Source: Escherichia phage MRostami-2023b. Taken from it: 64,000 bases of DNA. The translations under genes were made by a program, and so were the position numbers. Location of the stretch: sequence record OQ031492. One strand, given 5' to 3'. The stretch's first letter is position 1, and the number at the start of each line of letters is the position of its first letter. Below, piece after piece: positions 48,576 to 64,000 of the stretch. The notes under the pieces are model-generated. The model was given only the letters and a program-made list of their open reading frames with translations, was not told the origin of the DNA and ran no database searches.

Positions 48576-48689
48576 TTGTTTTCTCCTTTTGTTTGGTAGG
48601 AGTTGATCTTAACAAGATTAAAAAGTATGTCAATACTTGATCTGAAATTATTTTCAGGTATCATGTATGAACATTAACAAGAGAGGTAG

Positions 48690-48983: not shown

Positions 48984-48995
48984 AAGGAGAACCAA

Positions 48996-49636: not shown

Positions 49637-49638
49637 AT

Positions 49639-49815
49639 ATGTCTGAATTCTTCACAATGGCTTTCTTAGGGATCTATTTGATTATTAGTGCTGTTGGCTT
49701 AATCATGTCTCTAATAGAGGAAATGGGAATTAAGTGGAACTGTGCATTCGGTATAGCTCTTATGCTCACTCCGGTTTGGATCTACATCTGCAAATCGGTT
49801 GAACTAATTGGTTAA
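49639..49815 (+). CDS. Small membrane protein
   Basis: Start at MSEFFT; two hydrophobic helices. Confidence 0.35.
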   Translation: MSEFFTMAFLGIYLIISAVGLIMSLIEEMGIKWNCAFGIALMLTPVWIYICKSVELIG

Positions 49816-49825
49816 TGGAGGTAAT

Positions 49826-50164
49826 ATGTTTAGTAAAGAAATGAGAGAGGTGATCGCTACTCTGGTAGTTGATCATGGTGTTGAAGTTGAGCGTCACGTT
49901 TGGAAAGATGAGCCTCCTTTCTTTGATTTGGCATCACGGGCTAAAAGTCACATGTATCTCCTTGAAGATGATAAGGATTTTATTCTGCGTATGCGTTATG
50001 ATCGAGAGTTTAGAATTCCTCTTGACACAGATCCTGATGATGTAGTATTGTGGTTGGCAGAGCATTTCGCATTTAACGCTCTACATGGAAGAAGTTTTGG
50101 TAATGAACGTTGGGATACCATTTGTCGTAAACATAATATTGAACCAGAATACGGGAGTATGTAA
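49826..50164 (+). CDS. Hypothetical protein
   Basis: Start at ATG after ggaggt RBS. Confidence 0.4.
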   Translation: MFSKEMREVIATLVVDHGVEVERHVWKDEPPFFDLASRAKSHMYLLEDDKDFILRMRYDREFRIPLDTDPDDVVLWLAEHFAFNALHGRSFGNERWDTICRKHNIEPEYGSM

Positions 50165-50415
50165 TGTTAAGCGTTAAGCCTAAGATGATCAGTGAAGACC
50201 AGAAAGATTTCATTTACAAGTGTGGACGAATCTGGAGAGAGTATACCAAGGGTAACGAGGTCGTGGTGGTTACTGAACACCAGATTGAAATCTCTGATCT
50301 TTTCGGTGATTATTTGCAAGTGATCAAATTAGGCATTGACAGAGGTTTGGTGCAGGTGTTAACATTATCCCAAGTTGAAGCAGAACACTTAGACAAAATC
50401 ATTGTCGAGTTCTAA
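50164..50415 (+). CDS. Hypothetical protein
   Basis: 83 aa. Confidence 0.4.
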   Translation: MLSVKPKMISEDQKDFIYKCGRIWREYTKGNEVVVVTEHQIEISDLFGDYLQVIKLGIDRGLVQVLTLSQVEAEHLDKIIVEF

Positions 50416-50428
50416 GAGGAGAAAGAAT

Positions 50429-50593
50429 ATGATCTCTTTAGAATCAATAGCTTTTAAGAAAGGGTATACCGCAGGGTTCAAGTTTGGTATGTTTAATAAA
50501 GTAAATCCATATTGTCCAAAGACACACAAAAAGGAATTCGAAGAATGGGAAGATGGATTTTCTAAAGGCTACCAGGCAAAGGGTTGGTTGTAA
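50429..50593 (+). CDS. Hypothetical small protein
   Basis: Start at MISLESIAF after agaggaga RBS. Confidence 0.35.
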   Translation: MISLESIAFKKGYTAGFKFGMFNKVNPYCPKTHKKEFEEWEDGFSKGYQAKGWL

Positions 50594-50602
50594 GGAGAGA
50601 AT

Positions 50603-50767
50603 ATGATTTTAAACTTCATCATCAATTTGTGTTTGACATTGGGACTACTTTGTGCAATAGTATCCCCTCTGGTTGGTGAATATTGTTCAGAACTGGCGAT
50701 GTTTATAGTTCTTGGTGCGGCTATTGCTAATATGTTTGTCGCTGCGATTTGTATGTTGTGGGAATAG
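50603..50767 (+). CDS. Small hydrophobic membrane peptide (not in ORF table)
   Basis: 54 aa MILNFIINLCLTLGLLCAIVSPLVGEY… with aaggagag RBS. Confidence 0.35.
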   Translation: MILNFIINLCLTLGLLCAIVSPLVGEYCSELAMFIVLGAAIANMFVAAICMLWE

Positions 50768-50778
50768 GAGGGAAGTTT

Positions 50779-51135
50779 ATGAAAAAATTAATCTTAGCCA
50801 CATTGCTGGCTACCGTAAGCTTCACCACTTACGCTCAAAAATTTGTAGCAGTTAAAACGGATATTGGTAAAGATGTTGTGATCACAGGCAACAAATTTTA
50901 CTATACACCTGGAAATGGTGTTCTGGAAGAGTGCCAAGATGTTGAGGCATATACAGGAAAAGAAGATAACACGGAACGTCCTTTTTATTCGATTATAGCT
51001 ACTTGCAAAAATGAAATAGTAGCTATTAAACAATACAAAGATGCACCTGGAGGAGAGTACTTATTAATCAAGAATATTAAGAGTGAAAAAACTGCAAAGT
51101 TTACAGTAATTATTTTAAAAGGAGAAACGTTCTAA
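50779..51135 (+). CDS. Secreted/periplasmic protein with signal peptide
   Basis: MKKLILATLLATVSFTTYAQK… after ggaggg RBS. Confidence 0.45.
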   Translation: MKKLILATLLATVSFTTYAQKFVAVKTDIGKDVVITGNKFYYTPGNGVLEECQDVEAYTGKEDNTERPFYSIIATCKNEIVAIKQYKDAPGGEYLLIKNIKSEKTAKFTVIILKGETF

Positions 51136-52274
51136 TGAAATACACTATTTTTGGAGATGTGGCTGTTGTAAATAAGGAATATGGTGTTGAAGCTAATAAA
51201 CTTCCTGCTGGAGTTTGGGTTGTCAACTGCGATCCGCACGGTAACTACTCTTTAGTGCGTGGCGAAAGTTTCTCTCTTCCGAACACTCTTTATGGGGAAA
51301 CTAAAGACCGCGCCGCACATGTTATTAAAACATTTGCTCGTCGTAGTAAAGAAGGTAAAAATACTGGGGTGTTACTGACAGGGACAAAGGGCAGTGGTAA
51401 GACGATGTTAGCTAAACTGATTAGCATGTCCCTAATGTCCACAGAAGGTTTAGGTATTCCAACCATTTTGGTGACACAGCCTTACACAGATGCTGGATTC
51501 TTAGAATTTATGAGTAAAATTACAGATCGTGCTGTTGTTTTATTTGACGAGTTTGATAAAGTGTACGCTAAGAAAGAAGATCAGGAAGCACTGTTGACCT
51601 TGTTGGATGGAACAGGAAGTGGGAATAAACTTTACATCCTCACTAAAAATAGTGGTTATATCTCGGAATATTTTGTAAACCGTCCTAGTCGTATCTACTA
51701 CAGTTTCAATTACGATAAACTGTCTAGTGAAACTATGTTAGATTATTTGGATAAGAACTTGGTAAATAAAAAGCACGTAGATAACTTCCAACGTTTATGG
51801 GATGTTAGCACAGAGTTGTCTTTCGATGTTATTCAAGGCATTGTAGAAGAATTGAATTTCTATCCAAAAATGACTTTTAAAGAATGTCTTGAAATGATGG
51901 GTATTTCTTTAGGCAACGATGCTAAATGGAATGTGGCTTCTATCGTAGCTAATGGCAAAACGCTGAAGGTGAATTGGATCAATAACTGGCACGACTTCAC
52001 CCCTACTAAGTTTTTGTCGGGTGCTTGTTCCCTGAACATCTATCTGCAAAGCTTGAAAGATGATGAAGTGGAAGCAATGGAAACCAACAGTTATGTTATC
52101 CTGGATGAAGATGGCGATGCACATATTGATCTATGTGCAACTGCTGATGGTCTAACTTGTGATCTGATTGAAGGTGGTAAGATTCTGGTGATGAGCACTA
52201 CACCAGGAAACACTCTGCGAGTGGTGCTGGAGCCTGTAACACAACGTTCCACCACATTAGGTAGCGTGTTCTAA
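51135..52274 (+). CDS. AAA-type P-loop ATPase
   Basis: Walker A GTKGSGKTMLAK, Walker B-like VVLFDEFDK. Confidence 0.55.
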   Translation: MKYTIFGDVAVVNKEYGVEANKLPAGVWVVNCDPHGNYSLVRGESFSLPNTLYGETKDRAAHVIKTFARRSKEGKNTGVLLTGTKGSGKTMLAKLISMSLMSTEGLGIPTILVTQPYTDAGFLEFMSKITDRAVVLFDEFDKVYAKKEDQEALLTLLDGTGSGNKLYILTKNSGYISEYFVNRPSRIYYSFNYDKLSSETMLDYLDKNLVNKKHVDNFQRLWDVSTELSFDVIQGIVEELNFYPKMTFKECLEMMGISLGNDAKWNVASIVANGKTLKVNWINNWHDFTPTKFLSGACSLNIYLQSLKDDEVEAMETNSYVILDEDGDAHIDLCATADGLTCDLIEGGKILVMSTTPGNTLRVVLEPVTQRSTTLGSVF

Positions 52275-52282
52275 TAAAGATG

Positions 52283-53191
52283 NNNNNNNNNNNNNNNNNN
52301 NNNNNNNNNNNNNNNNNNNNNNNNNNNNNNNNNNNNNNNNNNNNNNNNNNNNNNNNNNNNNNNNNNNNNNNNNNNNNNNNNNNNNNNNNNNNNNNNNNNN
52401 NNNNNNNNNNNNNNNNNNNNNNNNNNNNNNNNNNNNNNNNNNNNNNNNNNNNNNNNNNNNNNNNNNNNNNNNNNNNNNNNNNNNNNNNNNNNNNNNNNNN
52501 NNNNNNNNNNNNNNNNNNNNNNNNNNNNNNNNNNNNNNNNNNNNNNNNNNNNNNNNNNNNNNNNNNNNNNNNNNNNNNNNNNNNNNNNNNNNNNNNNNNN
52601 NNNNNNNNNNNNNNNNNNNNNNNNNNNNNNNNNNNNNNNNNNNNNNNNNNNNNNNNNNNNNNNNNNNNNNNNNNNNNNNNNNNNNNNNNNNNNNNNNNNN
52701 NNNNNNNNNNNNNNNNNNNNNNNNNNNNNNNNNNNNNNNNNNNNNNNNNNNNNNNNNNNNNNNNNNNNNNNNNNNNNNNNNNNNNNNNNNNNNNNNNNNN
52801 NNNNNNNNNNNNNNNNNNNNNNNNNNNNNNNNNNNNNNNNNNNNNNNNNNNNNNNNNNNNNNNNNNNNNNNNNNNNNNNNNNNNNNNNNNNNNNNNNNNN
52901 NNNNNNNNNNNNNNNNNNNNNNNNNNNNNNNNNNNNNNNNNNNNNNNNNNNNNNNNNNNNNNNNNNNNNNNNNNNNNNNNNNNNNNNNNNNNNNNNNNNN
53001 NNNNNNNNNNNNNNNNNNNNNNNNNNNNNNNNNNNNNNNNNNNNNNNNNNNNNNNNNNNNNNNNNNNNNNNNNNNNNNNNNNNNNNNNNNNNNNNNNNNN
53101 NNNNNNNNNNNNNNNNNNNNNNNNNNNNNNNNNNNNNNNNNNNNNNNNNNNNNNNNNNNNNNNNNNNNNNNNNNNNNNNNNNNNNNNNNNN
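52283..53191. other. Masked sequence (909 N)
   Basis: N run; content unknowable. Confidence 0.9.
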
Positions 53192-53524
53192 AATCAACAG
53201 CAATGTTACATTAACTATGTCTATGATGAACAAGGTGTTCTCTGTGCCTTGAAATTTGGCATTACTAAAGATAGCGATAGGCGTATTAAAGAACAAAATA
53301 GCCATAATGTGTTAACTATGAAACAACACCAAGTGTGGCACTTCCCTACTGTTAAGCAGTGCAAAGATGCAGAGAGTCGTTGTAAGCGTATTCTTGATAC
53401 GGAAGCAGTGAGCAAATATGCTATGCCAGATGGCTACACAGAAACAGTAGAGTTATCTTGCATGGCATCAATACAAAACATTTATAAACTTTATGGTGGA
53501 ACATTACAGGAGGAAACATGTTAG
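53192..53524 (+). CDS. C-terminal part of a protein with T5orf172/GIY-YIG-like segment (5' part masked)
   Basis: YINYVYDEQGVLCALKFGITKDSDRRIKEQN; frame continuity across N unverifiable. Confidence 0.3.
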   Translation, partial: NQQQCYINYVYDEQGVLCALKFGITKDSDRRIKEQNSHNVLTMKQHQVWHFPTVKQCKDAESRCKRILDTEAVSKYAMPDGYTETVELSCMASIQNIYKLYGGTLQEETC

Positions 53525-53883
53525 TTGATGTTCAAATTATGCGCAATGAAAGGATGGACTTCTTTGAAGCAGTAGAGAAACATCTGATCCGATGGGACTA
53601 TGAATTTGTTCCTGCTGGATGTGGACCAGTAGAGCATTTAGCGGAAGACGACGATGTATACATGATCATTCGTCAAGTGTACCAGACAGACCAGTGCGAA
53701 GAAACTCCCGAACTGATTTTGTTTGAGTGTAAAGATCTTGCAAAATATTTTGACTATGGCGGAAAAGAGGGTCATAATCTCTCCAGATACAATAAACGTC
53801 TACTTATCTTAGACTACATGCGGAACAACAAACACAAACTCATCGACGCAGACGCAGTTTATGGCTACTGGTGGATGGATTAA
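53518..53883 (+). CDS. Hypothetical protein
   Basis: 121 aa, RBS aggagg. Confidence 0.4.
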   Translation: MLVDVQIMRNERMDFFEAVEKHLIRWDYEFVPAGCGPVEHLAEDDDVYMIIRQVYQTDQCEETPELILFECKDLAKYFDYGGKEGHNLSRYNKRLLILDYMRNNKHKLIDADAVYGYWWMD

Positions 53884-53896
53884 CAAAGGAGAAACT

Positions 53897-54085
53897 ATGG
53901 CACGTTTAGCAGATCATGAAATCTTTAAACCTATTCTGAACCACTATGATGAACTTAAAGCAGTGTTGGATTGTTATAGAGAGGATGAAGAACTCTTGGA
54001 GACAAACCTTAAAGTAGTTCTGATGAAAGCCTATCAGCAAGGGCAACGTGAAATTTTGGAGAGTATGAAAAATGCGAATAACTGA
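53897..54085 (+). CDS. Hypothetical small protein
   Basis: Start at MARLADHE after aaggaga RBS. Confidence 0.35.
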   Translation: MARLADHEIFKPILNHYDELKAVLDCYREDEELLETNLKVVLMKAYQQGQREILESMKNANN

Positions 54086-54614
54086 TGATTATGTATTCTT
54101 CTTTTCACATAAAGATGTTTTTAGTAATTGGTATATTGCACCCTTTACAGAAACCGAACCAGGTTACAATCAGACATTTAATTGTGTCGAACAATACATG
54201 ATGTGGCGTAAAGCTTTGCTTTTTAATGATCACAACACTGCACAGGCTATTCTGACTCATAGTTTGATACGGAAAGATGAGAAGATCCAAGCTTATTACA
54301 AACGTATGGGTAGGGCAGTGTCGGATTTTGATAACAATGTATGGGAAGAGAACCGTGAGCGTATTGTTATGCGAGGTTTATGCTTGAAATATGTACAGAA
54401 TCCAGATTTGTATGCAGACTTACACCTTTACCAATACAAAACGTTTGTTGAAGCAAGCCCCTACGATAAGGTTTACGGAATTGGAATGGGGATGTATGAA
54501 CCAGGGGTGCTAAACCCTGCCACCTGGAAAGGGCAGAATCTTTTAGGTAAATATCATAATAAACTGATCGAAATACTTTTCCCAGACAGAATACCGCAAA
54601 GACGATATTTGTGA
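54072..54614 (+). CDS. NADAR-domain protein (YbiA-like)
   Basis: FFFSHKDVFSNWY…EQYMMWRKALLF…DKVYGIGMG…GQNLLGKYHNKL matches NADAR/DUF1768 landmarks. Confidence 0.65.
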   Translation: MRITDDYVFFFSHKDVFSNWYIAPFTETEPGYNQTFNCVEQYMMWRKALLFNDHNTAQAILTHSLIRKDEKIQAYYKRMGRAVSDFDNNVWEENRERIVMRGLCLKYVQNPDLYADLHLYQYKTFVEASPYDKVYGIGMGMYEPGVLNPATWKGQNLLGKYHNKLIEILFPDRIPQRRYL

Positions 54615-54857
54615 TATTTTAACTTTTTTCATTTTTAGAACAAAGGTGTCACTTTGTAGCACAGAAATAAGGCTCCTACAGCACCGTAGAGAGCCTGTTA
54701 TTTTGTCCTATACAAACCCTTATCTTTTTCAGTTTGCATCACTAGGATTCGATCTAAGTGGGTTCCTGAAGGTCTACTAATAAGATTAAAGGTTATCTCA
54801 AATTCCCATTACCTATTATCTCAAAAATCCCTCAAATTATTTAAACTTTTTAAGAAT

Positions 54858-54895
54858 TTACAAAAGTGAAAGTTGAAAACCAAAATTTAAAGTTT
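54858..54895. repeat. A-rich direct repeat copy 1 in non-coding control region
   Basis: tacaaaagtgaaagttgaaaaccaaaatttaaagttta; near-copies at 54998-55035 and partial at 54937-54966. Confidence 0.5.
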
Positions 54896-54997
54896 AGGAA
54901 AATTATCTTAAAATGTTAGATACAAAACAAAACTCAAAAGTCAAGGAAAATTTTAAAAATTTTGCGCGCCCACAGTATTTAAAGTTTTTTTGCTTTT

Positions 54998-55035
54998 ACA
55001 AAAATGAAAGTACAAAAGCAAAATTTAAAGTTTAC
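54998..55035. repeat. A-rich direct repeat copy 2
   Basis: tacaaaaatgaaagtacaaaagcaaaatttaaagttta. Confidence 0.5.
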
Positions 55036-55039
55036 AAAA

Positions 55040-55175
55040 ATTTTTATGCAGGTGAGAATGAGAAGAGTTCTCATATGGAAATGCAAATGATAATGATTCG
55101 CATTTAAGTTTATAAATGAGATTGATTCTTATTTAATAAGGTAAATGATAACCATTCTCATTTAGAGAATGACGC
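55040..55175. promoter_or_regulatory. Cluster of palindromic operator-like sites
   Basis: gagaatgagaagagttctcat; aaatgc-aaatgataatgatt-cgcattt (Fur-box-like GATAATGAT core); cattctcatttagagaatg. Confidence 0.4.
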
Positions 55176-55420
55176 GCAGGGGCGGTGTTTGTCTCGCGCT
55201 CCCGTGTCCCCTCGCCATGTAATAAGAATAACAGATCCAGCCAGGAAAGCAAGCGATTATTTTATCTTTACATTTCTTTACAAATATATAGCGCCCAGCC
55301 TACCGGCGATCAACCTTCCAACCAGCGCCCTGGTATGTTAGCCCCGCCTTTACGCCGTGGGGTGGCGCTTCCTCTTCTGTATGTAAAACAGTATAAGCCC
55401 TATCCCTGGGCTTGTCAAGA

Positions 55421-55687
55421 TTATTTTTTGTTTTCTTGCCAGGTCAGGACACCTAGCCAAAAATGAATATCACCTTTTCCCCAATGTGGTATATTGCTTT
55501 CNNNNNNNNNACTGCAAGCCCATAGATAACCATTTGCGAACGTATCAAAATGATCTATATCCTCGACCTTATAATCTGATAGGTTGAGAACGGTTTCAAC
55601 CTTTAAGCCCGTTGCGCTTGCTACCTGGTGCACCGTGCCGCCTTGCCAGCCCAATGAGTGCATAAGGTGTAATGTAGTATTTGTCAT
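55421..55687 (-). CDS. Hypothetical protein divergent from the early-gene array (8 N inside)
   Basis: 88 aa ORF; possible TTGCTA-17-TATCAT promoter upstream. Confidence 0.3.
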   Translation of the reverse strand: MTNTTLHLMHSLGWQGGTVHQVASATGLKVETVLNLSDYKVEDIDHFDTFANGYLWACSXXXESNIPHWGKGDIHFWLGVLTWQENKK

Positions 55688-55796
55688 GGTATCGCCCTTT
55701 CTTTGATGTGCGCCCTGGTTGGCGCGGTAGAAAGATGATAGCCCTTTCTTTTATATATAGCAAGCAAAAAGAAAATAAAAAAGATTGAAAAAGTGA

Positions 55797-55854
55797 TTGA
55801 CGTTCGCCAGGTGGCGGCATAATATTTACCACGTAGGGCGGCAATGGTGCCGCT
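55797..55854 (+). promoter_or_regulatory. Sigma70-type promoter (TTGACG-17-TAATAT) plus conserved leader hairpin
   Basis: -10 followed by ttaccacGTAGGGCGGCAatggTGCCGC. Confidence 0.6.
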
Positions 55855-55874
55855 CATTATTTGGAGTTAAAATC

Positions 55875-56072
55875 ATGGCAACATTGCACATTGTGGCGAA
55901 AGCTGGACAAATAAACGTGGTAGTAAACGGTTTTACTGAGTTCAGTCATCCCCAGGATGATCATGAAACGGTTTTATCTTTCATTGATTCACTGTTAGAA
56001 ATGGGAGTAATTACAGAAGACCAGCACGCTACAAAATGCAAACGCGTTAATCAAATTGCAGGGATAGAATAA
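55875..56072 (+). CDS. Small early-type protein
   Basis: 65 aa from ATG after ggagtt RBS. Confidence 0.4.
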   Translation: MATLHIVAKAGQINVVVNGFTEFSHPQDDHETVLSFIDSLLEMGVITEDQHATKCKRVNQIAGIE

Positions 56073-56078
56073 AAAGTA

Positions 56079-56137
56079 TTGACAACAAACAACAACCTGA
56101 TAAGATGTATCACATAGGGCGGGAAGTGGTTTCCCGC
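56079..56137 (+). promoter_or_regulatory. Promoter (TTGACA-16-TAAGAT) plus leader hairpin
   Basis: gtatcacATAGGGCGGGAAgtggtTTCCCGC. Confidence 0.55.
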
Positions 56138-56162
56138 TCGTAACAGAAGAGAGATTATCATC

Positions 56163-56435
56163 ATGGCATCATATAGCGCAACAATGATCGTAGCTGGCAC
56201 CACTGGTAAACCTATGTGCGGTGGCGGATCTTTCGCAAATATCAACATTGACGGGCGTTTATCCCTGGACGCAGCGATCACCGTGGCGCGGGAAACATTT
56301 AAGAAAGAATGTAAATTCAATAAACAAGATTATCTCGGTTTTGCTATTGAAAAAACCGCGCGCTTTGTTGATTATAAAAGCCCGAAAATGGTTGACACTA
56401 CATTAAAAGCGCAAGATGTAGCGTTTTTGCTTTAA
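56163..56435 (+). CDS. Small early-type protein
   Basis: 90 aa, RBS agaagagag. Confidence 0.4.
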   Translation: MASYSATMIVAGTTGKPMCGGGSFANINIDGRLSLDAAITVARETFKKECKFNKQDYLGFAIEKTARFVDYKSPKMVDTTLKAQDVAFLL

Positions 56436-56438
56436 GGC

Positions 56439-56494
56439 TTGACATTAACGACTAATTTGTTAATATGTTACATAAAGCGGGAATAGTTCCCGCT
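56439..56494 (+). promoter_or_regulatory. Promoter (TTGACA-16-TAATAT) plus leader hairpin
   Basis: AGCGGGAAtagTTCCCGCT after -10. Confidence 0.55.
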
Positions 56495-56511
56495 ATTTGT
56501 AAGGTGGTAGA

Positions 56512-56769
56512 ATGTTTTACATCAAATTAAAAGGTCACGTGATCGCGTTCAAAGATAACGCTTTTTACAGATTAGCAAAATATGCGTTAATACATCCCCA
56601 CTATGTTTATATAAGGGGGCGTGATGAAATAAATATCTTTGATCAAACAACATGCGAGAACATCGAGATCCGCAAGGTTGGCGTACGTGATTATCGTACA
56701 TCTTTCTACCCTTGCAAGGATTCAGCAAGTCTTTTCAAAGTATGCCAATTGTTGAAAAAAGGTGGTTAA
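56512..56769 (+). CDS. Small early-type protein
   Basis: 85 aa, RBS aaggtgg. Confidence 0.4.
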   Translation: MFYIKLKGHVIAFKDNAFYRLAKYALIHPHYVYIRGRDEINIFDQTTCENIEIRKVGVRDYRTSFYPCKDSASLFKVCQLLKKGG

Positions 56770-56770
56770 T

Positions 56771-57328
56771 ATGGGCCGCGAATATGTGATCCAGTCTTGG
56801 GTAAAACATGAAGCAGATGATCCGCGCATCATTCCCGATCATCTTATCGATGAATCCACGGGATATAGCGGTGAGCAAATAGGTAACAGATTAGCACGTA
56901 GTAACGGCAACGTAAAAGCACGTTATGTGCGCCCTGGCTGGCTGGCAAATGGTAACGCTGATTTATCCAGTGCGGAAGATGCGAGCGACGGCGCGAAAGA
57001 TAATCCTTTGTACAAAGTTGATCCGGCTTTTCGTGTCCTGGATGAATACCCCAGCAAGATAGCGGCGCTCGATCAGGCCCTGGAAAGTAAGCGCATCACC
57101 TGGACCGCTTACAACATGGCAAAAAACGTACTTGATGGTAAATTGATTCAAGCTGAAAGAAAATTAGCCAAAATTGCAGCTATAGCCCAGGAGGAAGACG
57201 AGGAGACAACGGAAGAGGAAGAGTACGAAGAGATCCCGCCGTTGTTGTGTGTTGATGCTTTTCCTGATTATCAGCCGACAGAGGAAGAAAAAAGGATCGC
57301 ACTAGAAAACTTTGAAAATAGTCTTTGA
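56771..57328 (+). CDS. Acidic hypothetical protein
   Basis: 185 aa from MGREYVIQ; Glu-rich C-terminal tract. Confidence 0.4.
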   Translation: MGREYVIQSWVKHEADDPRIIPDHLIDESTGYSGEQIGNRLARSNGNVKARYVRPGWLANGNADLSSAEDASDGAKDNPLYKVDPAFRVLDEYPSKIAALDQALESKRITWTAYNMAKNVLDGKLIQAERKLAKIAAIAQEEDEETTEEEEYEEIPPLLCVDAFPDYQPTEEEKRIALENFENSL

Positions 57329-57382
57329 CATATCGCCGCCACTGGCATAATATTTACCACGTAGGGCGGCAATGGTGCCGCT
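57325..57382 (+). promoter_or_regulatory. Promoter (TTGACA-17-TAATAT) plus leader hairpin
   Basis: Near-identical to 55797-55854 element. Confidence 0.55.
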
Positions 57383-57410
57383 CATAGTAAAATTATGCAA
57401 GAGGTTTGCA

Positions 57411-57506
57411 ATGATTAATAAAGAAAATAGCTTGACGGTTGGAACGATTAACGCTATCATTTTCGCCGTTCCATTTTGGGTTGTAGTAGCGGCTATTATT
57501 TTCTAA
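57411..57506 (+). CDS. Tiny hydrophobic peptide (31 aa)
   Basis: MINKENSLTVGTINAIIFAVPFWVVVAAIIF; own promoter-hairpin. Confidence 0.3.
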   Translation: MINKENSLTVGTINAIIFAVPFWVVVAAIIF

Positions 57507-57515
57507 AAAATATTC

Positions 57516-57576
57516 TTGACAACGTTTTTTAATCTGATAAGATGTATCACATAGGGCGGCGGAATACTTCCCCGCC
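57516..57576 (+). promoter_or_regulatory. Promoter (TTGACA-16-TAAGAT) plus leader hairpin
   Basis: gtatcacATAGGGCGGCGGAAtacTTCCCCGCC. Confidence 0.55.
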
Positions 57577-57597
57577 AAAACAAAAAAGGGTAACACA

Positions 57598-57960
57598 ATG
57601 AGCAAGCAAATCAGTACTATCATGTTTAATCTGGTATCTTTCCGCGATGATATGAAAAATTTACCACGTGAAACGGTTGATATTCATGTTTCAGCTTATC
57701 GCGCCCTTATTGACATGTTACCGCTAAAACGTGATCAACATGCCGCTAATATGATGCTTAATGCTATGCTTAAAAAGATGATTCAAACTGATCTCACCCT
57801 GGCATATGAGTATCAAGGGCGCTTATATGCAACTTACAACAAAACGGTACCTGGTTTGGGAAGTACCGAAGAGTTGCACGGCTTAAACCTGGATCAAAAC
57901 ACTTGGGATAGTATGCGCCGCGTTATGGTATGGGCCGAAAGCGGTAAAATTTACGAATAA
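57598..57960 (+). CDS. Small early-type protein
   Basis: 120 aa. Confidence 0.4.
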   Translation: MSKQISTIMFNLVSFRDDMKNLPRETVDIHVSAYRALIDMLPLKRDQHAANMMLNAMLKKMIQTDLTLAYEYQGRLYATYNKTVPGLGSTEELHGLNLDQNTWDSMRRVMVWAESGKIYE

Positions 57961-57966
57961 AAACGG

Positions 57967-58023
57967 TTGACACTGTTTAAACTTCTGGTATAGTTTATCA
58001 CGTAGGGCGGCAATGGTGCCGCC
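57967..58023 (+). promoter_or_regulatory. Promoter (TTGACA-16-TATAGT) plus leader hairpin
   Basis: ttatcacGTAGGGCGGCAatggTGCCGCC. Confidence 0.55.
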
Positions 58024-58043
58024 AACAATAAAAGGTTAACACC

Positions 58044-58409
58044 ATGGCTATTAATATCAATGTTTCCGCTTATGCTACCCTGGCTAACACGGCTAAAATC
58101 GAATTATCCAGCATTGAGGCGGTGCATATTAGCGCCCGTCGCTGGTTTCAAAAGTCTTATGGTAATACTTATTTCTCTTTGATGGTTGACGTTGAGATCG
58201 GCGGTAAATTGATCGAAGTGGTTAACGTTCCGTTTCAATATGGCTATGGTGATCATTTTGATACCGTCGCCCTGGAAGAATTTAGCAAGGTTATCAACCT
58301 TGAGGGCAAGGAATTTTCACGCGGCGCGTATCTTTCCCGTTTTTGCCGTGACAATGGGATCACTGTATACAGTCATGCAAGCGATGTTAAACGTAAAAAA
58401 GATCTATAA
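58044..58409 (+). CDS. Small early-type protein
   Basis: 121 aa. Confidence 0.4.
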   Translation: MAININVSAYATLANTAKIELSSIEAVHISARRWFQKSYGNTYFSLMVDVEIGGKLIEVVNVPFQYGYGDHFDTVALEEFSKVINLEGKEFSRGAYLSRFCRDNGITVYSHASDVKRKKDL

Positions 58410-58415
58410 AAAGCA

Positions 58416-58475
58416 TTGACAGCACGAATAAAAAGCGTAAAATGTTTTATATCGAGAGCGGGAACACTTCCCGCC
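58416..58475 (+). promoter_or_regulatory. Promoter (TTGACA-16-TAAAAT) plus leader hairpin
   Basis: GCGGGAAcacTTCCCGC after -10. Confidence 0.5.
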
Positions 58476-58498
58476 TCACTGAAAAAGAGAGAAAAATC

Positions 58499-58738
58499 AT
58501 GGCTAAATCTAAAATGTACAACGGTCACAAAAACAAAACTCATTGGAATGTAAGCCTTTGGATTAATAACGATGAATCGTTATACCGGTTGGCCCAAGAT
58601 TTTATTAACGCTAATGCTAATCGTAATGATGCGGCGCGGGATATGATGCTTTTTCTGGAACAAACTGGACAAGATAAAACGCCAGACGGTTTCAAATATA
58701 GCACTACTGCGATCCGTGCCGCGATGGTTGGAATGTAA
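58499..58738 (+). CDS. Small early-type protein
   Basis: 79 aa from MAKSKMY. Confidence 0.4.
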   Translation: MAKSKMYNGHKNKTHWNVSLWINNDESLYRLAQDFINANANRNDAARDMMLFLEQTGQDKTPDGFKYSTTAIRAAMVGM

Positions 58739-58746
58739 TAAAAACA

Positions 58747-58805
58747 GTTGACAACGTTTAAAATTAGTGTAAGATGTATCACATAGGGCGGGAAGTGGTT
58801 TCCCG
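58747..58805 (+). promoter_or_regulatory. Promoter (TTGACA-16-TAAGAT) plus leader hairpin
   Basis: Near-identical to 56079-56137 element. Confidence 0.55.
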
Positions 58806-58828
58806 CCAAAACAGAGAGATTAAAGATT

Positions 58829-59056
58829 ATGGCTATCAATATTGTTCGCGTATCCGGCACCGTTGGCACTTCACAGGTTATTGCAGTCGTCACNNNNNNN
58901 NNNNNNNNNNNNNNNNNNNNNNCCTTGAATAAGTGGGCTATTGCTAATTTTGGGGAATATGCAAGCGTCGAGTACATCGAATCCTACCAGGTGCCAACCA
59001 TCAGCCTAACCGATCTCAACGTTGATCGCCTGTTATGCCTGGATGAATTAATCTGA
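58829..59056 (+). CDS. Small early-type protein (39 N inside)
   Basis: 75 codons incl. masked part. Confidence 0.3.
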   Translation: MAINIVRVSGTVGTSQVIAVVXXXXXXXXXXXLNKWAIANFGEYASVEYIESYQVPTISLTDLNVDRLLCLDELI

Positions 59057-59065
59057 AAAAGATTG

Positions 59066-59122
59066 TTGACACGGGAAAGAAAAAGAGTAAACTATATTAC
59101 GTAGGGCGGCAATGGTGCCGCT
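59066..59122 (+). promoter_or_regulatory. Promoter (TTGACA-16-TAAACT) plus leader hairpin
   Basis: atattacGTAGGGCGGCAatggTGCCGC. Confidence 0.5.
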
Positions 59123-59143
59123 CACAACAGAAGAGAGATTATC

Positions 59144-59339
59144 ATGNNNNNNNNNNNNNNNNNNNNNNNNNNNNNNNNNNNNNNNNNNNNNNNNNNNNNN
59201 NNNNNNNNNNNNNNNNNNNNNNNNNNNNNNNNNNNNNNNNNNNNNNNNNNNNNNNNNNNNNNNNNNNNNNNNNNNNNNNNNNNNNNNNNNNNNNNNNNNN
59301 NNNNNNNNNNNNNNNNNNNNNNNNNTTATAAAATAAAGC
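59144..59339 (+). CDS. Small ORF, start only; remainder masked
   Basis: ATG after agaagagagattatc RBS; 179 N follow. Confidence 0.2.
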
Positions 59340-59401
59340 TTGACAATAATTTGTTATCTAGTAAAGTGTACGACATAGGGCGGGGCAATAAGGCAACGCC
59401 C
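59340..59401 (+). promoter_or_regulatory. Promoter (TTGACA-16-TAAAGT) plus leader hairpin variant
   Basis: gtacgacATAGGGCGGGG…CGCCC. Confidence 0.45.
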
Positions 59402-59419
59402 ACTAATGAGGGTAAAATC

Positions 59420-59524
59420 ATGTTAGAGAAAATTTTCACGGTTGCAGTGGTTGGCCTGGCGTTATCGGTTGGAGTGGTTGCAACTATGGCTAACATGATC
59501 CTATCTTCCCACGGTATCGGCTAA
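59420..59524 (+). CDS. Tiny hydrophobic peptide (34 aa)
   Basis: MLEKIFTVAVVGLALSVGVVATMANMILSSHGIG. Confidence 0.3.
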   Translation: MLEKIFTVAVVGLALSVGVVATMANMILSSHGIG

Positions 59525-59534
59525 GGTGAAACAA

Positions 59535-59750
59535 ATGATCACGAATAAGACAGGTAAAACGGAATTTTTACGCGGCTTGCAAGTTGGTAAACCTGAGATC
59601 TGGCATTGTACTAAATCCGCACACAATGAAATGAAAGACTTTACCGCTAGTTTACAACGTGTTAAAATATCTATTACGCAGAAAAAAGCCTTGATAGTTG
59701 CAGAAAACGAGATCCCGCAAACCATTATTATTGTCGAGCGTACAGCATGA
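59535..59750 (+). CDS. Small early-type protein
   Basis: Start at ATG after aaggtg. Confidence 0.35.
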   Translation: MITNKTGKTEFLRGLQVGKPEIWHCTKSAHNEMKDFTASLQRVKISITQKKALIVAENEIPQTIIIVERTA

Positions 59751-60133
59751 AAACAGAAATCATTAACGAAATCATCAACGGCTATAAAGAAGCCTTTATT
59801 TTTGCTGAATCAGCAAGGGATCATGAAGGTAATTTTATTGATAACTTAGACGATTATGATTTTTCTCCTAGCGCGGACAAACGGATCGCCCAGGATGTAA
59901 CAGCCTTTATTAATGCTAATCTTGCCGCTATCTCTGAGGCAATGAGCGACGGCGCAACAGCCAACCAGATCGGCAATGATTTACATTTTACCCGTAACGG
60001 TCACGGCGTAGGCTTTTGGGATCGCCTTGAAATCTACACCACTAACACGGCGAACCGCCTAACCAATGCAGCTAAGTTTATGCCGAACGTGTCGGCTTAC
60101 ATTGGTGAAGATAATTTGATTTATATTGAATAA
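59747..60133 (+). CDS. Small early-type protein
   Basis: 128 aa, ATGA overlap. Confidence 0.4.
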   Translation: MKTEIINEIINGYKEAFIFAESARDHEGNFIDNLDDYDFSPSADKRIAQDVTAFINANLAAISEAMSDGATANQIGNDLHFTRNGHGVGFWDRLEIYTTNTANRLTNAAKFMPNVSAYIGEDNLIYIE

Positions 60134-60139
60134 AAAGTA

Positions 60140-60252
60140 TTGACACAGATCGCCAGTGTGATAATATTTACCACGTAGGGCGGCAATGGTGCCGCTGACA
60201 CAGATCGCCAGTGTGCTTATATTTAATGCGTAGGGCGGCAATGGTGCCGCCG
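60140..60252 (+). repeat. Tandem duplication of promoter plus leader hairpin unit (two ~56-bp copies)
   Basis: ttgacacagatcgccagtgtg…gtagggcggcaatggtgccgc followed by ctgacacagatcgccagtgtg…gtagggcggcaatggtgccgcc. Confidence 0.6.
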
Positions 60253-60269
60253 ATAATGAGGAAAGTAAA

Positions 60270-60569
60270 ATGGAAACTATCGCTATTGTTACCGTAGAAA
60301 AACTGGTTGTTGGTGATGTATTCGCGTTAATGGTGCCTAACAGCAGCAAGCTGGGCGCTTATGAAGTAATGGATCATAAAAATGAATCATTTGGCGACGG
60401 TTGCACAATGGCGGTAAAATCTTTAAAGGATGGAATCATCCGCCAGGCTAACTGGCACAAAGGGAATCAAGTCGGATTAATATCAGCTAATTTCTTGCCA
60501 GAAGAGCAAACGTTAGACCAACTATCAGGCGGTAAGACGTTAGCCGAACTACTGGAAACAGCGATCTAA
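60270..60569 (+). CDS. Small early-type protein
   Basis: 99 aa. Confidence 0.4.
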   Translation: METIAIVTVEKLVVGDVFALMVPNSSKLGAYEVMDHKNESFGDGCTMAVKSLKDGIIRQANWHKGNQVGLISANFLPEEQTLDQLSGGKTLAELLETAI

Positions 60570-60577
60570 TCAACAAA

Positions 60578-60593
60578 GGGGCGGCAACGCCCC
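60578..60593 (+). other. GNRA-loop hairpin in intergenic leader
   Basis: GGGGCG-gcaa-CGCCCC; no U-tract. Confidence 0.4.
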
Positions 60594-60613
60594 ACGTCAG
60601 AAAGGAAAAGATT

Positions 60614-60850
60614 ATGAGTATTGCAACAGTATTAAACGCCGTTAAAACCGCTGAATCATCCGGCTTACATGTTGAGCTTATAGATCAACCAGGTGGCGAT
60701 CTCCTTGTCCAGGTTTACCCGCCGAAAGTAGGGGATGATCATTATTGGTGCTATTCTGATACGTTCGAACAAGTAGACACGAAAGCGATCACGGCTTTTA
60801 TTTTAAAAGCTATTGAAGAAAATAACTTTCATTATAACATCAATCAATAA
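60614..60850 (+). CDS. Small early-type protein
   Basis: 78 aa. Confidence 0.4.
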   Translation: MSIATVLNAVKTAESSGLHVELIDQPGGDLLVQVYPPKVGDDHYWCYSDTFEQVDTKAITAFILKAIEENNFHYNINQ

Positions 60851-60859
60851 ACCATAAGC

Positions 60860-60875
60860 GGGGCGGTAACGCCCC
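60860..60875 (+). other. GNRA-loop hairpin in intergenic leader
   Basis: GGGGCG-gtaa-CGCCCC. Confidence 0.4.
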
Positions 60876-60905
60876 ATTAAACGCAATAGGAAGAGGCTAG
60901 AAAGC

Positions 60906-61190
60906 ATGAAAAAGATGATCGCAGTAGTTGCCCTGGTTGTTGGTATTAACGCGCCTGTACTGGCTAATGAGTTGCCAGAATCCATCACGTTAACCGATAT
61001 TAACGCAGTGAATCGGATCGGTGTTAATTATCGCCTATGCCTTGCCGCTAAAACTTTCCAGGACGGCACAACAGAGTACTACGGATTCGAGGGTATCCGC
61101 TGCGGTGAGCTTTCACGCGACCTTAAGGAAGATCCAGACCTTGAGGCCATACCGATGACCGTAAACGGTAAAGCCCACGTAAACCGCTAA
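60906..61190 (+). CDS. Small secreted protein with signal peptide
   Basis: MKKMIAVVALVVGINAPVLA…. Confidence 0.4.
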   Translation: MKKMIAVVALVVGINAPVLANELPESITLTDINAVNRIGVNYRLCLAAKTFQDGTTEYYGFEGIRCGELSRDLKEDPDLEAIPMTVNGKAHVNR

Positions 61191-61192
61191 CC

Positions 61193-61327
61193 ATGAGAAA
61201 GGTAATCATCACAATGGGGATCGTAGTAGCAACGCTGGCGCTTATCCCTTTCATGGTTGAACATGTGCTGATCAATGTTGTCCTGGTAGTCAGTGACCTA
61301 TTGGAAACGGTTGGCAACTGGTTTTAA
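61193..61327 (+). CDS. Small hydrophobic membrane peptide (not in ORF table)
   Basis: 44 aa MRKVIITMGIVVATLALIPFMVEHVLINVV…. Confidence 0.3.
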   Translation: MRKVIITMGIVVATLALIPFMVEHVLINVVLVVSDLLETVGNWF

Positions 61328-61335
61328 GATAATAA

Positions 61336-61362
61336 ATAGGGCTTGCAATAGTCCTATTTTTT
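61336..61362 (+). terminator. Rho-independent terminator
   Basis: atagggc…gtcctat stem followed by tttttt. Confidence 0.5.
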
Positions 61363-61501
61363 GTTATACTTATTGAACGGGCGGCACCTGGGAGCAGGGG
61401 AAGATAATCACCAGAAGACCCCGCTATATATTGATAACTAACGCCTATCAAACAACAAAACATCAAAGGAACAAACTATCAAATCTTTACAATTCTACCT
61501 A

Positions 61502-61551
61502 TTGACACCGGATCACGCTTACATTATTATTTATCACGTAGGGCGAGAATG
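61502..61551 (+). promoter_or_regulatory. Promoter (TTGACA-17-TATTAT) plus start of leader, truncated by N run
   Basis: ttatcacGTAGGGCGAG then masked. Confidence 0.45.
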
Positions 61552-61825
61552 NNNNNNNNNNNNNNNNNNNNNNNNNNNNNNNNNNNNNNNNNNNNNNNNN
61601 NNNNNNNNNNNNNNNNNNNNNNNNNNNNNNNNNNNNNNNNNNNNNNNNNNNNNNNNNNNNNNNNNNNNNNNNNNNNNNNNNNNNNNNNNNNNNNNNNNNN
61701 NNNNNNNNNNNNNNNNNNNNNNNNNNNNNNNNNNNNNNNNNNNNNNNNNNNNNNNNNNNNNNNNNNNNNNNNNNNNNNNNNNNNNNNNNNNNNNNNNNNN
61801 NNNNNNNNNNNNNNNNNNNNNNNNN
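61552..61825. other. Masked sequence (274 N) bounded by near-identical promoter-leader copies
   Basis: Both flanks read attattatttatcacgtagggcgag. Confidence 0.8.
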
Positions 61826-61874
61826 TCATGTTAAATTATTATTTATCACGTAGGGCGAGCAATACAGCAAGCCC
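61826..61874 (+). promoter_or_regulatory. Second copy of -10 plus leader element (-35 masked)
   Basis: tattat-ttatcac-gtagggcgagcaatacagcaagccc. Confidence 0.4.
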
Positions 61875-61891
61875 ACAAAGAGGAAAAGAAG

Positions 61892-62260
61892 ATGAGCAAA
61901 TCAGCAATTAAAGCAGTTGAAAAAGCGCAAGAAGTGATCGCAACGTCCACCACTGGCGCAAAGGTTAATCTCGTTGGTTATCTGACAGATGAAACTATCC
62001 GTAAAAATTGGCGTAATGCTGATTTACTGGCTTGCTTATTGATTAATAGTGTCGCTAATGCTTTCCAGTGTGAAACAGCCGAGAGCCTGGAGGAAAACTT
62101 GTTTGATAATATGGATCAAGCCATTGAAACCTATATACAATCAAACCTGGATAGCTGGAACAGTAAAACATGGCCCGACAATTTACGCGATACAACTGAT
62201 CAACTGATCCGCCTTGCTGTGATGGTTGAACGCGATAACGTTTACAACAGCACAAAGTAA
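61892..62260 (+). CDS. Small early-type protein
   Basis: 122 aa. Confidence 0.4.
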   Translation: MSKSAIKAVEKAQEVIATSTTGAKVNLVGYLTDETIRKNWRNADLLACLLINSVANAFQCETAESLEENLFDNMDQAIETYIQSNLDSWNSKTWPDNLRDTTDQLIRLAVMVERDNVYNSTK

Positions 62261-62269
62261 GATTATACA

Positions 62270-62290
62270 AGGGCGCACCAAGCGCCCTTT
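62270..62290 (+). terminator. Hairpin terminator (weak U-tract), same stem as 62828-62861
   Basis: agggcgc-accaa-gcgccct. Confidence 0.4.
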
Positions 62291-62325
62291 AACGTAAAGA
62301 AATGTAAATAATGCGCTATCCCCTA

Positions 62326-62354
62326 TTGACAGGGGATCGGCGTTATATTATATT
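62326..62354 (+). promoter_or_regulatory. Sigma70-type promoter (TTGACA-17-TATATT) with -35 embedded in palindrome
   Basis: atcccctaTTGACAggggat inverted repeat around -35. Confidence 0.45.
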
Positions 62355-62399
62355 TAACTCACTGGCAGCAAACAACGAAACGAAACAAAGGACAATACC

Positions 62400-62819
62400 A
62401 TGAACATTAAATCAAATAATCCAGCTTACTCCTTCGATAACGCTTTTTGTCACGGTAGCGCCGCCAAAGGCTTCGAAATCGATGGTAAATTGGTTATCGT
62501 GAACGTTGACGGGGAAGAGGTTGCAGTATATCCGGTAAACGATGTTAAAAGCCGTTTACAATGCCGCATGGATGTTACCGCGTATCAGCTTGATCCGATC
62601 CGTGTAGTTGCCCTGGTCCTGGAAGAAGAGATCAAAGCAATGCATCATAGTAACAAGTTTATTGGTGACGCGCAGGACAATATGAAAGTATGCCGCAGTA
62701 AAGTTAATGAAGCCTTGAAAGAATGCGGTTTTAAGGATCTGATGATTAAACGTGATGAAAAATTCCGCTTTCGTAATGACCTGGCGAACCGGATCTACTC
62801 AATATATGAAGCGTTATAA
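62400..62819 (+). CDS. Small early-type protein
   Basis: 139 aa. Confidence 0.4.
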   Translation: MNIKSNNPAYSFDNAFCHGSAAKGFEIDGKLVIVNVDGEEVAVYPVNDVKSRLQCRMDVTAYQLDPIRVVALVLEEEIKAMHHSNKFIGDAQDNMKVCRSKVNEALKECGFKDLMIKRDEKFRFRNDLANRIYSIYEAL

Positions 62820-62827
62820 TTGACAAC

Positions 62828-62861
62828 AAAAAAAGGGGCGCACCAAGCGCCCTTTCTTTTT
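62828..62861 (+). terminator. Rho-independent terminator
   Basis: aaaggggcgc-accaa-gcgccctttcttttt. Confidence 0.75.
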
Positions 62862-62879
62862 GCCCGAATAATGTTGATA

Positions 62880-63440
62880 GCTTTCGCCTATGAAAAACCG
62901 ACACAGAACAAAACTGAATAGATCGCGGTATCGAGCTAATCAACCATTAAACGAATAACCATACCTCCCAGGGTAACAGGTTGTTAGAGAGCCATTTAGA
63001 GCGGTTAAAATCGATCAACAACCAACAACAAACCATCAAAAACACCCTTTTACCTCCTTTCTAGTGCAATGATAACCATTATCATCTATCCATGTTTATC
63101 TATGCAATATAAGTGCATAACTATAATGTTGATAATAGTTCGCAACAACTAACTAACCAACAACCTAAAACAATAAGCAAACTAATCATAATCAAAGGAA
63201 TAATAGCAAGATGATTGATAACGACAAACAATCAAACCATGATGAATACTAAGCAAGATAACGATAACACGACAAAACAACCAACTAACGAACAATAACA
63301 AACGAAACCATTAAAATAATAACTATTGCCATAATAGTGACTGAATGAAATCATTACAAAACGAATCATTCCCAGGATCATCATTAGCACGCTATGCCGG
63401 ACACATAGCGAGCTAATAATAAGCCAACTACACCCCAACA
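62880..63440. other. ORF-free A/C-skewed low-complexity tract
   Basis: Plus strand almost devoid of G runs; repeated aacaa/ccaacaa/ataacga units; no credible ORF. Confidence 0.5.
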
Positions 63441-64000
63441 ATCATAACCATCGGTGACGGTTATTTCTTGTTATTGCGTAGCTTGCAATAATTGCAAGCG
63501 TAATTACGCTTACACTTATTGCGCTGGCTTATTATTAGCATTATATGTAATTACCAAGATCATAACATTAGCGCAATAACAATAATCATTGTGATAATTA
63601 CATAAGGAAATAATTAGCATGGCAATAATTATGGGGGCAATGGGAGGATGATTATCATCATTCCGATACATTGCACACTATGCACATAATAGAATAAAAG
63701 TCAATAATTTTGGGGGCGAAATGTTACCGCCACAGGCGGGAATGTTGAGCATCTTCTCTTAAACGTAAATAAAATCAGAAAATTCTTGATTTATTCTAGT
63801 TTTTATGTTAATAAACGTTTAAATAATAATCATTCTCATATAAATAATAGTCTGCTTGTCATGAGTGGGATTAGTTGACAGTGTTCCGTCATATGATGAA
63901 GTTGCCAAACCATTGATAAATAAGTGTTTGTGTGATTTATAATCAAGTGGCCCACCTTGTCGCTATGTTGGCATGAGCCTTGCATAAGTCATTGAATACG

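Follow-up and report, generated by a model that had tools for sequence, protein, structure and literature searches.

A conserved non-coding tract beside the predicted direct terminal repeat of a phAPEC8-like Escherichia phage

The gene-free tract and its place in the phage group

The subject of this analysis is the gene-free tract that closes a 64,000-nucleotide (nt) stretch of Escherichia phage MRostami-2023b (sequence record OQ031492), which we refer to as the window. The tract follows the last gene (62400-62819) and its terminator and runs to the end of the window. The start of a direct terminal repeat (DTR) lies inside it, and the remainder is a flank that carries a cut-site module, a strand-specific fold and palindromic boxes (Table 1). 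A similarity search with positions 62820-64000 as the query identified the window as part of a phAPEC8-like myovirus (Stephanstirmvirinae), as all matching records are phAPEC8-like and most belong to Phapecoctavirus. The tract recurs in 122 phage records, 64 of which match it over the full length at 94-98% identity, and it is therefore real sequence and no assembly artefact.

Table 1. Features in and around the gene-free tract (window coordinates; a slash marks the position of a cut)
Feature	Position	Strand	Remarks
Intrinsic terminator of the last gene	62833-62855	bidirectional in this phage	9-bp stem
Untranslated tract, A+C-rich and G-poor on the plus strand, little conserved secondary structure	62856-63379		composition, weak consensus fold, no coding signal
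Conserved block A (AAAACTGAATAGATCGCGGTATCGAGCTAATCAA)	62903-62941		near-identity between Phapecoctavirus and Justusliebigvirus despite diverged flanks
Conserved block B	63065-63140		Fur-box-like palindromes and TATGCA..TGCATA (63101-63119)
Fur-box-like palindrome TGATAACCATTATCA (block B)	63070-63084		63065-63083 matches the Fur consensus at 15/19 positions
Weaker Fur-box-like match TGATAATAGTTCGCA	63130-63144		3 mismatches; runs 4 nt past block B
Y-shaped structured element, about 170 nt	63380-63549	minus	15-bp outer stem enclosing two hairpin arms, then a separate 3′ hairpin
Variable AT-rich spacer	63550-63711		repeated words ATTAGC, CAATAAT and GGGGGC; palindrome GATGATTATCATC; low cross-lineage identity
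Cut-site module	63712-63747	plus	GGGGGCGAA, N6, hairpin CCGCC-ACA-GGCGG (63727-63739), GAATGTTG at the repeat boundary
First 253 nt of the DTR of about 329 bp	63748-64000	plus	physical end 63747/63748, mapped from relatives
Fur-box-like palindrome in the repeat, TAATAATCATTCTCA	63824-63838		
Sigma-70-like promoter in the repeat (TTGATA, 19 nt, TATAAT)	63913-63943	plus	predicted; points to the first genes

A first-pass annotation of the sequence had described a terminal tract of more than 1 kb, free of open reading frames (ORFs) and beginning after the last terminator. Both parts of that description hold. The terminator is real, and 62856-64000 contains no gene: the longest ORF overlapping 62820-64000 encodes 69 amino acids, from a TTG start on the minus strand. 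In the close relative tuntematon, the longest ORF of the full 1.6-kb gap has 64 codons, against 71 ± 17 in shuffled sequences. The gene-free region runs past the end of the window, and gaps of 1.5-2.0 kb lie at the same place in other lineages (phiWec179, muut, inny, Citrobacter Tr1 and Klebsiella phi1_175008). A scan for tRNA and tmRNA genes returned none.

A decayed or unrecognised protein-coding gene, or an artefact of assembly, is hardly credible as an explanation of the tract. A few automated annotations do call ORFs of 30-70 amino acids in it. However, ORF lengths are within the shuffled expectation, ORF positions in the gap show no conservation between the lineages compared, and the period-3 signal of the tract is 1.85 against 6.1 and 3.9 in two upstream genes. 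With neither a conserved ORF nor period-3 composition, a coding gene was rejected, and the presence of the sequence in more than 100 independent assemblies speaks against an artefact.

The genome end and the cut-site module

In related phages the repeat starts at the position equivalent to 63748 (GAATGTTG/AGCATC; in a longer context, …GGGAATGTTG/AGCATCTTCTCTTAAACG…). Therefore, the last 253 nt of the window should be the beginning of a repeat of about 329 bp, predicted to end 76 nt past the end of the window. In the record of Schickermooser, for which a 328-bp repeat was reported (PMC6563267), both ends are identical over 329 bp, starting at the equivalent of 63748. The ends of the BI-EHEC record are identical over 328 bp, and the annotation of phi92 lists a DTR-L and a DTR-R, each 343 bp long and bounded by the same motif. 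This boundary is shared by the end of the BME3 record, to which PhageTerm assigned a repeat of 342 bp (PMC12210895). Genomes ending in direct terminal repeats have been described as a trait of the subfamily as a whole (PMC12695924), and read-start or coverage evidence for the ends has been published only for BME3 and LL12 (PMC12210895, PMC6658697). A packaging or terminal region was among the readings that the first-pass annotation had offered, together with a comparison to the genome ends of related phages. That comparison bears this reading out, as the mapped ends of close relatives place the start of the DTR inside the tract.

The same motif in the same orientation, GTTR/AGCA, is found at both boundaries of the repeat (GTTG/AGCM on the left and GCGTTA/AGCA on the right). 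The spacing between the boundaries, which gives the predicted repeat length, is 321-344 bp in every lineage examined.

As a side observation, the repeat of BME3 (PP239276) is annotated 73 nt off the end of the record, the stretch in between contains an N, and the record end fits the phi92-type boundary. It looks as if the annotation of this end or the assembly was shifted.

Just upstream of the left boundary we found a module composed of GGGCGAA, a few bases, a GC hairpin and 6-8 nt ending in TGTTG, followed by the cut and AGCA. Its GC-rich hairpin (stem of 4-7 bp, loop of 3-4 nt) is present in every lineage outside Justusliebigvirus. The stem has nine different sequences across lineages, and its position is fixed 6-8 nt before the cut. 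The number of copies, spaced 58-69 nt apart, ranges from one to three: this window has a single module, tuntematon, Citrobacter Tr1 and KP2025 have two each, and FKP3 has three. Justusliebigvirus carries repeats of TATTTGTTG in place of the module. The terminase-binding regions of other phages have a similar appearance, with an array of repeated modules next to a cleavage site.

The copy number of the module thus differs even between close relatives, and a 58-nt duplication is present in tuntematon (L001 5929-5987) and in many other records. Because of this duplication, the BLAST match is reported in two pieces. The extra module of tuntematon is flanked by the inverted repeat TAAGAGAAG / CTTCTCTTA. 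In the spacer that separates the module from the structured element, short words are enriched (AATAAT, 13 against 1.7 expected; ATTAGC, 6 against 0.7).

A strand-specific fold upstream of the repeat

The structured element lies 200-370 nt upstream of the left repeat boundary. It contains the palindrome cluster that had been noticed in the first reading of the sequence. Two of the three palindromes quoted there, GCGTAATTACGC (63498) and TTGCAATAATTGCAA (63483), are exact and form parts of 16-nt and 19-nt palindromes; the third, TGTAATTACA, is off by one base, the actual sequence at 63546 being TGTAATTACC.

We aligned 18 sequences of the region 63372-63549 from six or more lineages. The consensus structure calculated by RNAalifold reached -66.7 kcal/mol on the minus strand versus -45.9 kcal/mol on the plus strand. 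In the minus-strand structure, 99.9% of the 949 alignment cells hold standard pairs, and 14 pairs have changed on both sides. The covariation score was 0.256, compared with 0.108 ± 0.008 for shuffled alignments (none of 500 reached it) and at most 0.055 when the pairing partners were slid. For the window sequence itself, the minimum free energy was -77.5 kcal/mol on the minus strand (z -9.3) and -56.3 kcal/mol on the plus strand (z -5.75); with DNA parameters, the minus strand gave z -9.2. A covariance model built from the 18 sequences scored held-out lineages at 140-200 bits on the minus strand and at no more than 35 bits on the opposite one.

Among 26 distinct sequences, in an alignment fitted to the covariance model, we counted 1224 cells with Watson-Crick pairs, 133 with G·U pairs, which are spread over 13 pair positions, and not a single A·C cell. 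Double-stranded protein sites or cruciforms would give both transition mismatches equally often. As far as sequence comparison can tell, the asymmetry means that the minus strand folds as a single strand, be it RNA or DNA. The element thus has one mark of a structured RNA, a structure conserved on one strand with compensatory changes. The first-pass suggestion of a non-coding RNA is possible for the minus strand, centred on the palindrome cluster, and not for the A/C-rich plus strand on which it had been placed.

Scanning against Rfam 15, which includes the phi29 packaging RNA (pRNA), yielded no family match; in 62000-64000 the only hit at E ≤ 1 was a plant microRNA with 20 bits against a gathering threshold of 117. 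Neither blastn nor the covariance model found further copies of the element in the window. Just upstream of it, promoter-like scores on the minus strand average 6.3, compared with a background median of 3.2.

A counterpart in rV5

The fold probably has a counterpart outside the subfamily. In rV5 (Vequintavirinae), a 2,604-bp ORF-free gap (NC_011041: 104014-106617), drawn as the 'non-coding' box in PMC3606486, follows a gene 92% identical to 62400-62819. The first 500 nt of this gap share the G-poor bias, and the skew pattern and boxes are similar. The covariance model matches the gap on the corresponding strand with 21.9 bits (E of roughly 1e-4), and the matched region (L037 4232-4459) folds alike, at -87.9 kcal/mol (z -10.4) versus -75.9 kcal/mol on the other strand. 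The two gaps represent one locus, and by its fold and position the matched region of rV5 is probably the equivalent of our structured element. Alignment of the two gaps puts the rV5 repeat about 290 nt from the element. Given this alignment and the fold match, the order of elements is the same in both subfamilies: the flanking gene, a G-poor spacer of 0.5-0.7 kb, a fold on the antisense strand, 200-300 nt and a short repeat. The cut motif GTTGAGCA was not found in the rV5 gap.

Each of the element-bearing groups, rV5-like and phi92/phAPEC8-like, counts about 120-130 database records. The element of about 170-220 nt might be an undescribed structured RNA common to these two groups of myoviruses, acting in cis or in trans at the genome end, either as a packaging RNA (similar in role to phi29 pRNA, of other ancestry) or as a replication primer. 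We put this forward tentatively and give it a low probability.

Fur-box-like palindromes and a promoter in the repeat

The palindrome TGATAAT-N-ATT(A/C)TCA (TGATAATNATTATCA) occurs 19 times in the window versus 8.3 ± 2.8 expected, and six of the copies are located in the last kilobase. It resembles the Fur-box consensus GATAATGATAATCATTATC (PMC3788343), with which the boxes of the window agree at 14-15 of the 19 positions; in relatives the agreement extends to as many as 17. Seventeen positions in the window reach at least 14/19, five of them in the last 1145 nt, where 0.3 would be expected. In muut and inny, the syntenic copy of the box at 63824 is the perfect TGATAATCATTATCA, a 17/19 match. 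The boxes are syntenic in all lineages: block B has one or two copies, and the repeat has two, located about 75 nt from its start and about 70 nt from its right end. The last of these starts 3 nt after the end of the window.

By their sequence, these palindromes would pass for Fur operators, whether these are described by the 19-bp consensus or as a 7-1-7 palindrome. They differ from the usual ones in location, as they occupy the end of a phage genome and a single further intergenic stretch (55.05-55.16 kb) and not the surroundings of iron genes. Additionally, most phage copies read ATTCTCA in one half. It is possible that the boxes are bound by the host Fur protein or, equally possible, by a phage protein. 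Our literature search found no report linking Fur boxes to lytic phages.

The two boxes within the repeat flank the promoter-like site listed in Table 1. Such sites, from which transcription is predicted to begin 160-200 nt inside the repeat, were observed in most, not all, of the lineages examined. The T4-type late promoter TATAAATA and the late-promoter motif of rV5 showed no informative placement.

Boxes also occur in a second ORF-poor region of the window, 54615-55800, where TGAGAAGAGTTCTCA, TGATAATGATTCGCA and TGATAACCATTCTCA start at 55059, 55088 and 55146. A 40-nt stretch of that region is similar to 63800-63839. This suggests that one regulator may act at several promoters.

The A/C-rich part

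Strong A/C strand skew was a further claim of the first-pass annotation, and it is borne out by the numbers. The A+C content of 62862-63460 is 0.651, the maximum among all 600-nt windows of the 64 kb (mean 0.510, sd 0.032), with a GC skew of about -0.28 and an AT skew of about +0.32 in the A/C-rich part. The depletion of G on the plus strand is a conserved trait (C/G 1.2-2.0 and G 9-14% in all 11 lineages), and the excess of A over T is confined to the Phapecoctavirus group. At 63014 a run of 50 nt has no G at all.

The repeated AACAA units that had been noticed are a genuine excess (12 against 4.3 ± 2.1 in shuffled sequences). The same cannot be said of the ARN-type repeats, whose runs are as frequent as base composition predicts: there are two runs of at least four units versus 1.3 expected (p of about 0.4) and six of at least three versus 5.2. 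A search for tandem repeats revealed nothing but a weak 11-nt array at 63016-63043.

Across genera, 62856-63379 is conserved at the level of the end of the adjacent gene or better. Its consensus structure on the minus strand is weak, with local hairpins only. In composition, the plus strand would fit a rut region, that is, a C-rich, G-poor, unstructured and untranslated RNA. Two readings would fit the tract: a plus-strand substrate of Rho acting as an insulator, or a minus-strand RNA that is poor in C and thus resistant to Rho.

In Justusliebigvirus (muut, L006 2106-2167; inny, L007 2105-2151), the tract contains an insertion with short tandem repeats of about 16 nt, similar to ACAGTAATCATTTCAT and annotated as 'repeat_region' only.

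The terminator, neighbouring genes and database records

On the plus strand, TTTCTTTTT comes directly after the 9-bp stem of the terminator; read on the minus strand, this hairpin precedes CTTTTTTTGT. The hairpin and the T-run of the plus strand are kept in all lineages; the U-run of the minus strand is less conserved.

The last gene encodes a 139-amino-acid protein that is unusually conserved, with 92% identity between the two subfamilies. It belongs to phrog_12277, and its only Pfam match, to an OB-fold dimerisation domain, is below the threshold (E 0.024). In the Justusliebigvirus, Citrobacter and Klebsiella relatives, it is not this gene that flanks the gap. The proteins encoded next to the gap have no recognisable function, and no recognisable initiator gene is among them.

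Further upstream, the plus strand of 48000-62400 carries dense near-consensus sigma-70 promoters (TTGACA, 16-17 nt, TAnnAT), every one of them ahead of a small gene; some of the genes also end in a terminator of their own. This part looks like an early region transcribed by the host polymerase and leading up to the tract.

The window contains 11 N-masked runs of 9-909 nt each (e.g., 16266-16986, 52283-53191 and 61552-61825). The nearest lies about 1 kb upstream of the tract, which is itself free of such runs. Some near-identical genomes were deposited as phages of Campylobacter, Acinetobacter, Pseudomonas and Klebsiella; some of these labels probably reflect contamination or mislabelling and not the true host range. 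Beyond the phage records, a pattern scan of IMG/VR returned only 4 loci, and a metagenome scan yielded 9 true relatives plus 5 chance matches in unrelated sequence.

Proposed role and alternative explanations

We consider it probable, with moderate confidence, that the tract is the conserved non-coding flank of the right-hand DTR copy and a cis-acting region for the processing of genome ends and packaging. In replicating concatemers, the packaging enzyme would dock on the repeated modules of this region and then cut or nick at both repeat boundaries, by which the repeat would be duplicated and packaging started in the manner of T7 and T3. In those phages, the ends of the genome hold the specificity for packaging, which is initiated by a pause of RNA polymerase at the concatemer junction (PMC3276506). 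The minus-strand fold would work as a single-stranded nucleic acid. Most likely it would be the 5′ domain of an untranslated minus-strand transcript, which would cross the C-poor, hence Rho-resistant, tract and end at the bidirectional terminator; alternatively, the fold may form in DNA that becomes single-stranded while ends are processed or the genome is replicated. As for the palindromic boxes, they may be operators, of host Fur or of a phage protein, that bracket an early promoter in the repeat.

Several observations weigh against this proposal. The octamer GTTRAGCA is unspecific on its own, with 7 copies in the window against 5 expected, so that additional features must contribute to recognition. 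Only one copy of the repeat lies in the window, and the terminal redundancy is deduced from relatives with 94-98% identity. A word that recurs nearby (GCTAATAATA) makes up the outer stem of the fold in two inverted copies, so part of the apparent covariation could reflect co-evolving protein sites. With regard to the postulated transcript, several lineages have a weak U-run on the minus strand of the terminator, and no sigma-70 promoter for a minus-strand RNA was found at a fixed position across lineages. Our literature search found no transcript or packaging studies of this phage group, and any role of the A/C-rich tract itself is putative.

The fold could also belong to the gene of a trans-acting minus-strand non-coding RNA, with a structured 5′ domain of about 170 nt and a C-poor tail, which has a job unrelated to the ends (e.g., host takeover or anti-defence) and is merely parked in the gap. 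The strand-specific fold with its G·U cells and lack of A·C cells would suit such a gene, as would the bidirectional terminator and the raised promoter-like scores upstream on the minus strand; that this strand is C-poor in all lineages is, we infer, what an untranslated RNA escaping Rho would require. There is a precedent for an anti-defence RNA in an rV5-like phage, namely the pseudo-ToxI of phiTE (PMC3475682). However, the phiTE locus is a 59-bp intergenic repeat situated elsewhere in a headful-packaging genome, and homology to it was rejected on account of the different kind of locus and mode of packaging. Moreover, no conserved promoter, Rfam family or published transcript study supports the RNA gene, and the place of the element by the repeat is fixed in two subfamilies, which suggests a role in cis. 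We thus see it as a possibility, but a doubtful one. Similar doubt attaches to a replication origin, at which the primer of DNA synthesis would be supplied by a transcript or a single-stranded fold next to the repeat, a minus-strand RNA with more G than C favouring an R-loop. Analogous cases are the promoter-linked secondary origins near the ends of T7, RNA II of ColE1 and the R-loop primers of T4. The skew does switch near 63500, where GC skew goes from -0.28 to +0.1 with a local minimum of the cumulative skew, and rV5 behaves alike; repeated words and palindromes are present, and the strand-specific fold could be a priming signal on the lagging-strand template. Nonetheless, the skew is far too strong and local to be mutational, the A-tracts lack helical phasing (none of the lineages shows a periodicity of 10-11 nt), DnaA boxes stay at the expected level (19 in the window against 21 expected, with one 8/9 match in the tract), and no recognisable initiator gene stands next to the gap. 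An origin of the DnaA or iteron type was rejected on the last two grounds, which leaves origins of other types. A role as an origin would be compatible with one in packaging, and nothing separates the two readings.

Two further explanations concern the plus strand of the A/C-rich part. As a Rho-dependent terminator or insulator, it would load Rho onto transcripts that read through the terminator and thereby spare the cut site and the repeat, which is compatible with a cis-acting role of the region in packaging. Its composition in all lineages and also in rV5, the long G-free run, the little conserved structure and the location directly after the terminator of the last gene agree with this function. 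Yet the tract is conserved in sequence, beyond composition alone, and its 530 nt far exceed what a Rho loading site needs, and so we hold the insulator to be unlikely. A protein-binding sponge, which the first-pass annotation had considered, is very improbable; it would be an A/C-rich RNA from the plus strand, capturing Hfq or some other RNA-binding protein via ARN or CA motifs. The number of AACAA units and the A+C content of 0.65 would be in its favour, but (ARN)n runs stay at the level of composition, the excess of A over T is limited to one genus, a strong terminator stands directly before the tract, the promoter-like matches inside it on the plus strand are weak and non-conserved, and the only supported fold is on the opposite strand.

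Comparison with known systems and significance

The arrangement resembles the concatemer junction of T7 and T3 in its short direct repeat, its non-coding flanks with repeats and predicted promoters, and the putative early promoters at the end that enters first. The T7 junction additionally has arrays of repeats and forms hairpin intermediates. Our arrangement differs in lacking a phage RNA polymerase and any similarity in sequence, and in having one oriented motif at both boundaries and a 170-nt covarying fold. If anything is shared, it would be a similar way of working, and we claim no membership in that system. The short modules repeated beside a cleavage site, with a copy number that varies between relatives, are reminiscent of the cosB-type arrays of lambda; here, however, the ends carry a duplicated repeat instead of cohesive ends, the modules hold a hairpin of free sequence, and binding is putative. 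With phi29 pRNA, the folded element has in common its length of about 170 nt, a three-way junction and a location near the genome end. Unlike the genome considered here, those of phi29 are protein-primed and not terminally repeated, and the element has no match to the pRNA family of Rfam.

The repeat and the non-coding region are already recorded for relatives, whereas the modules, the covarying fold and the boxes are undescribed in the literature we searched. Phages of this group are among the most often isolated coliphages and are used in therapy cocktails. The present analysis provides a map that can be tested: an exact cut position, a module of hairpin plus motif, a fold that extends across two subfamilies, and Fur-like boxes. 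It could be used to open and annotate genomes correctly, as many records were opened arbitrarily or carry spurious small ORFs in the tract, and to design vectors that are competent for packaging. Should the element turn out to be an RNA, it would represent a new family of phage RNAs with a role at genome ends.

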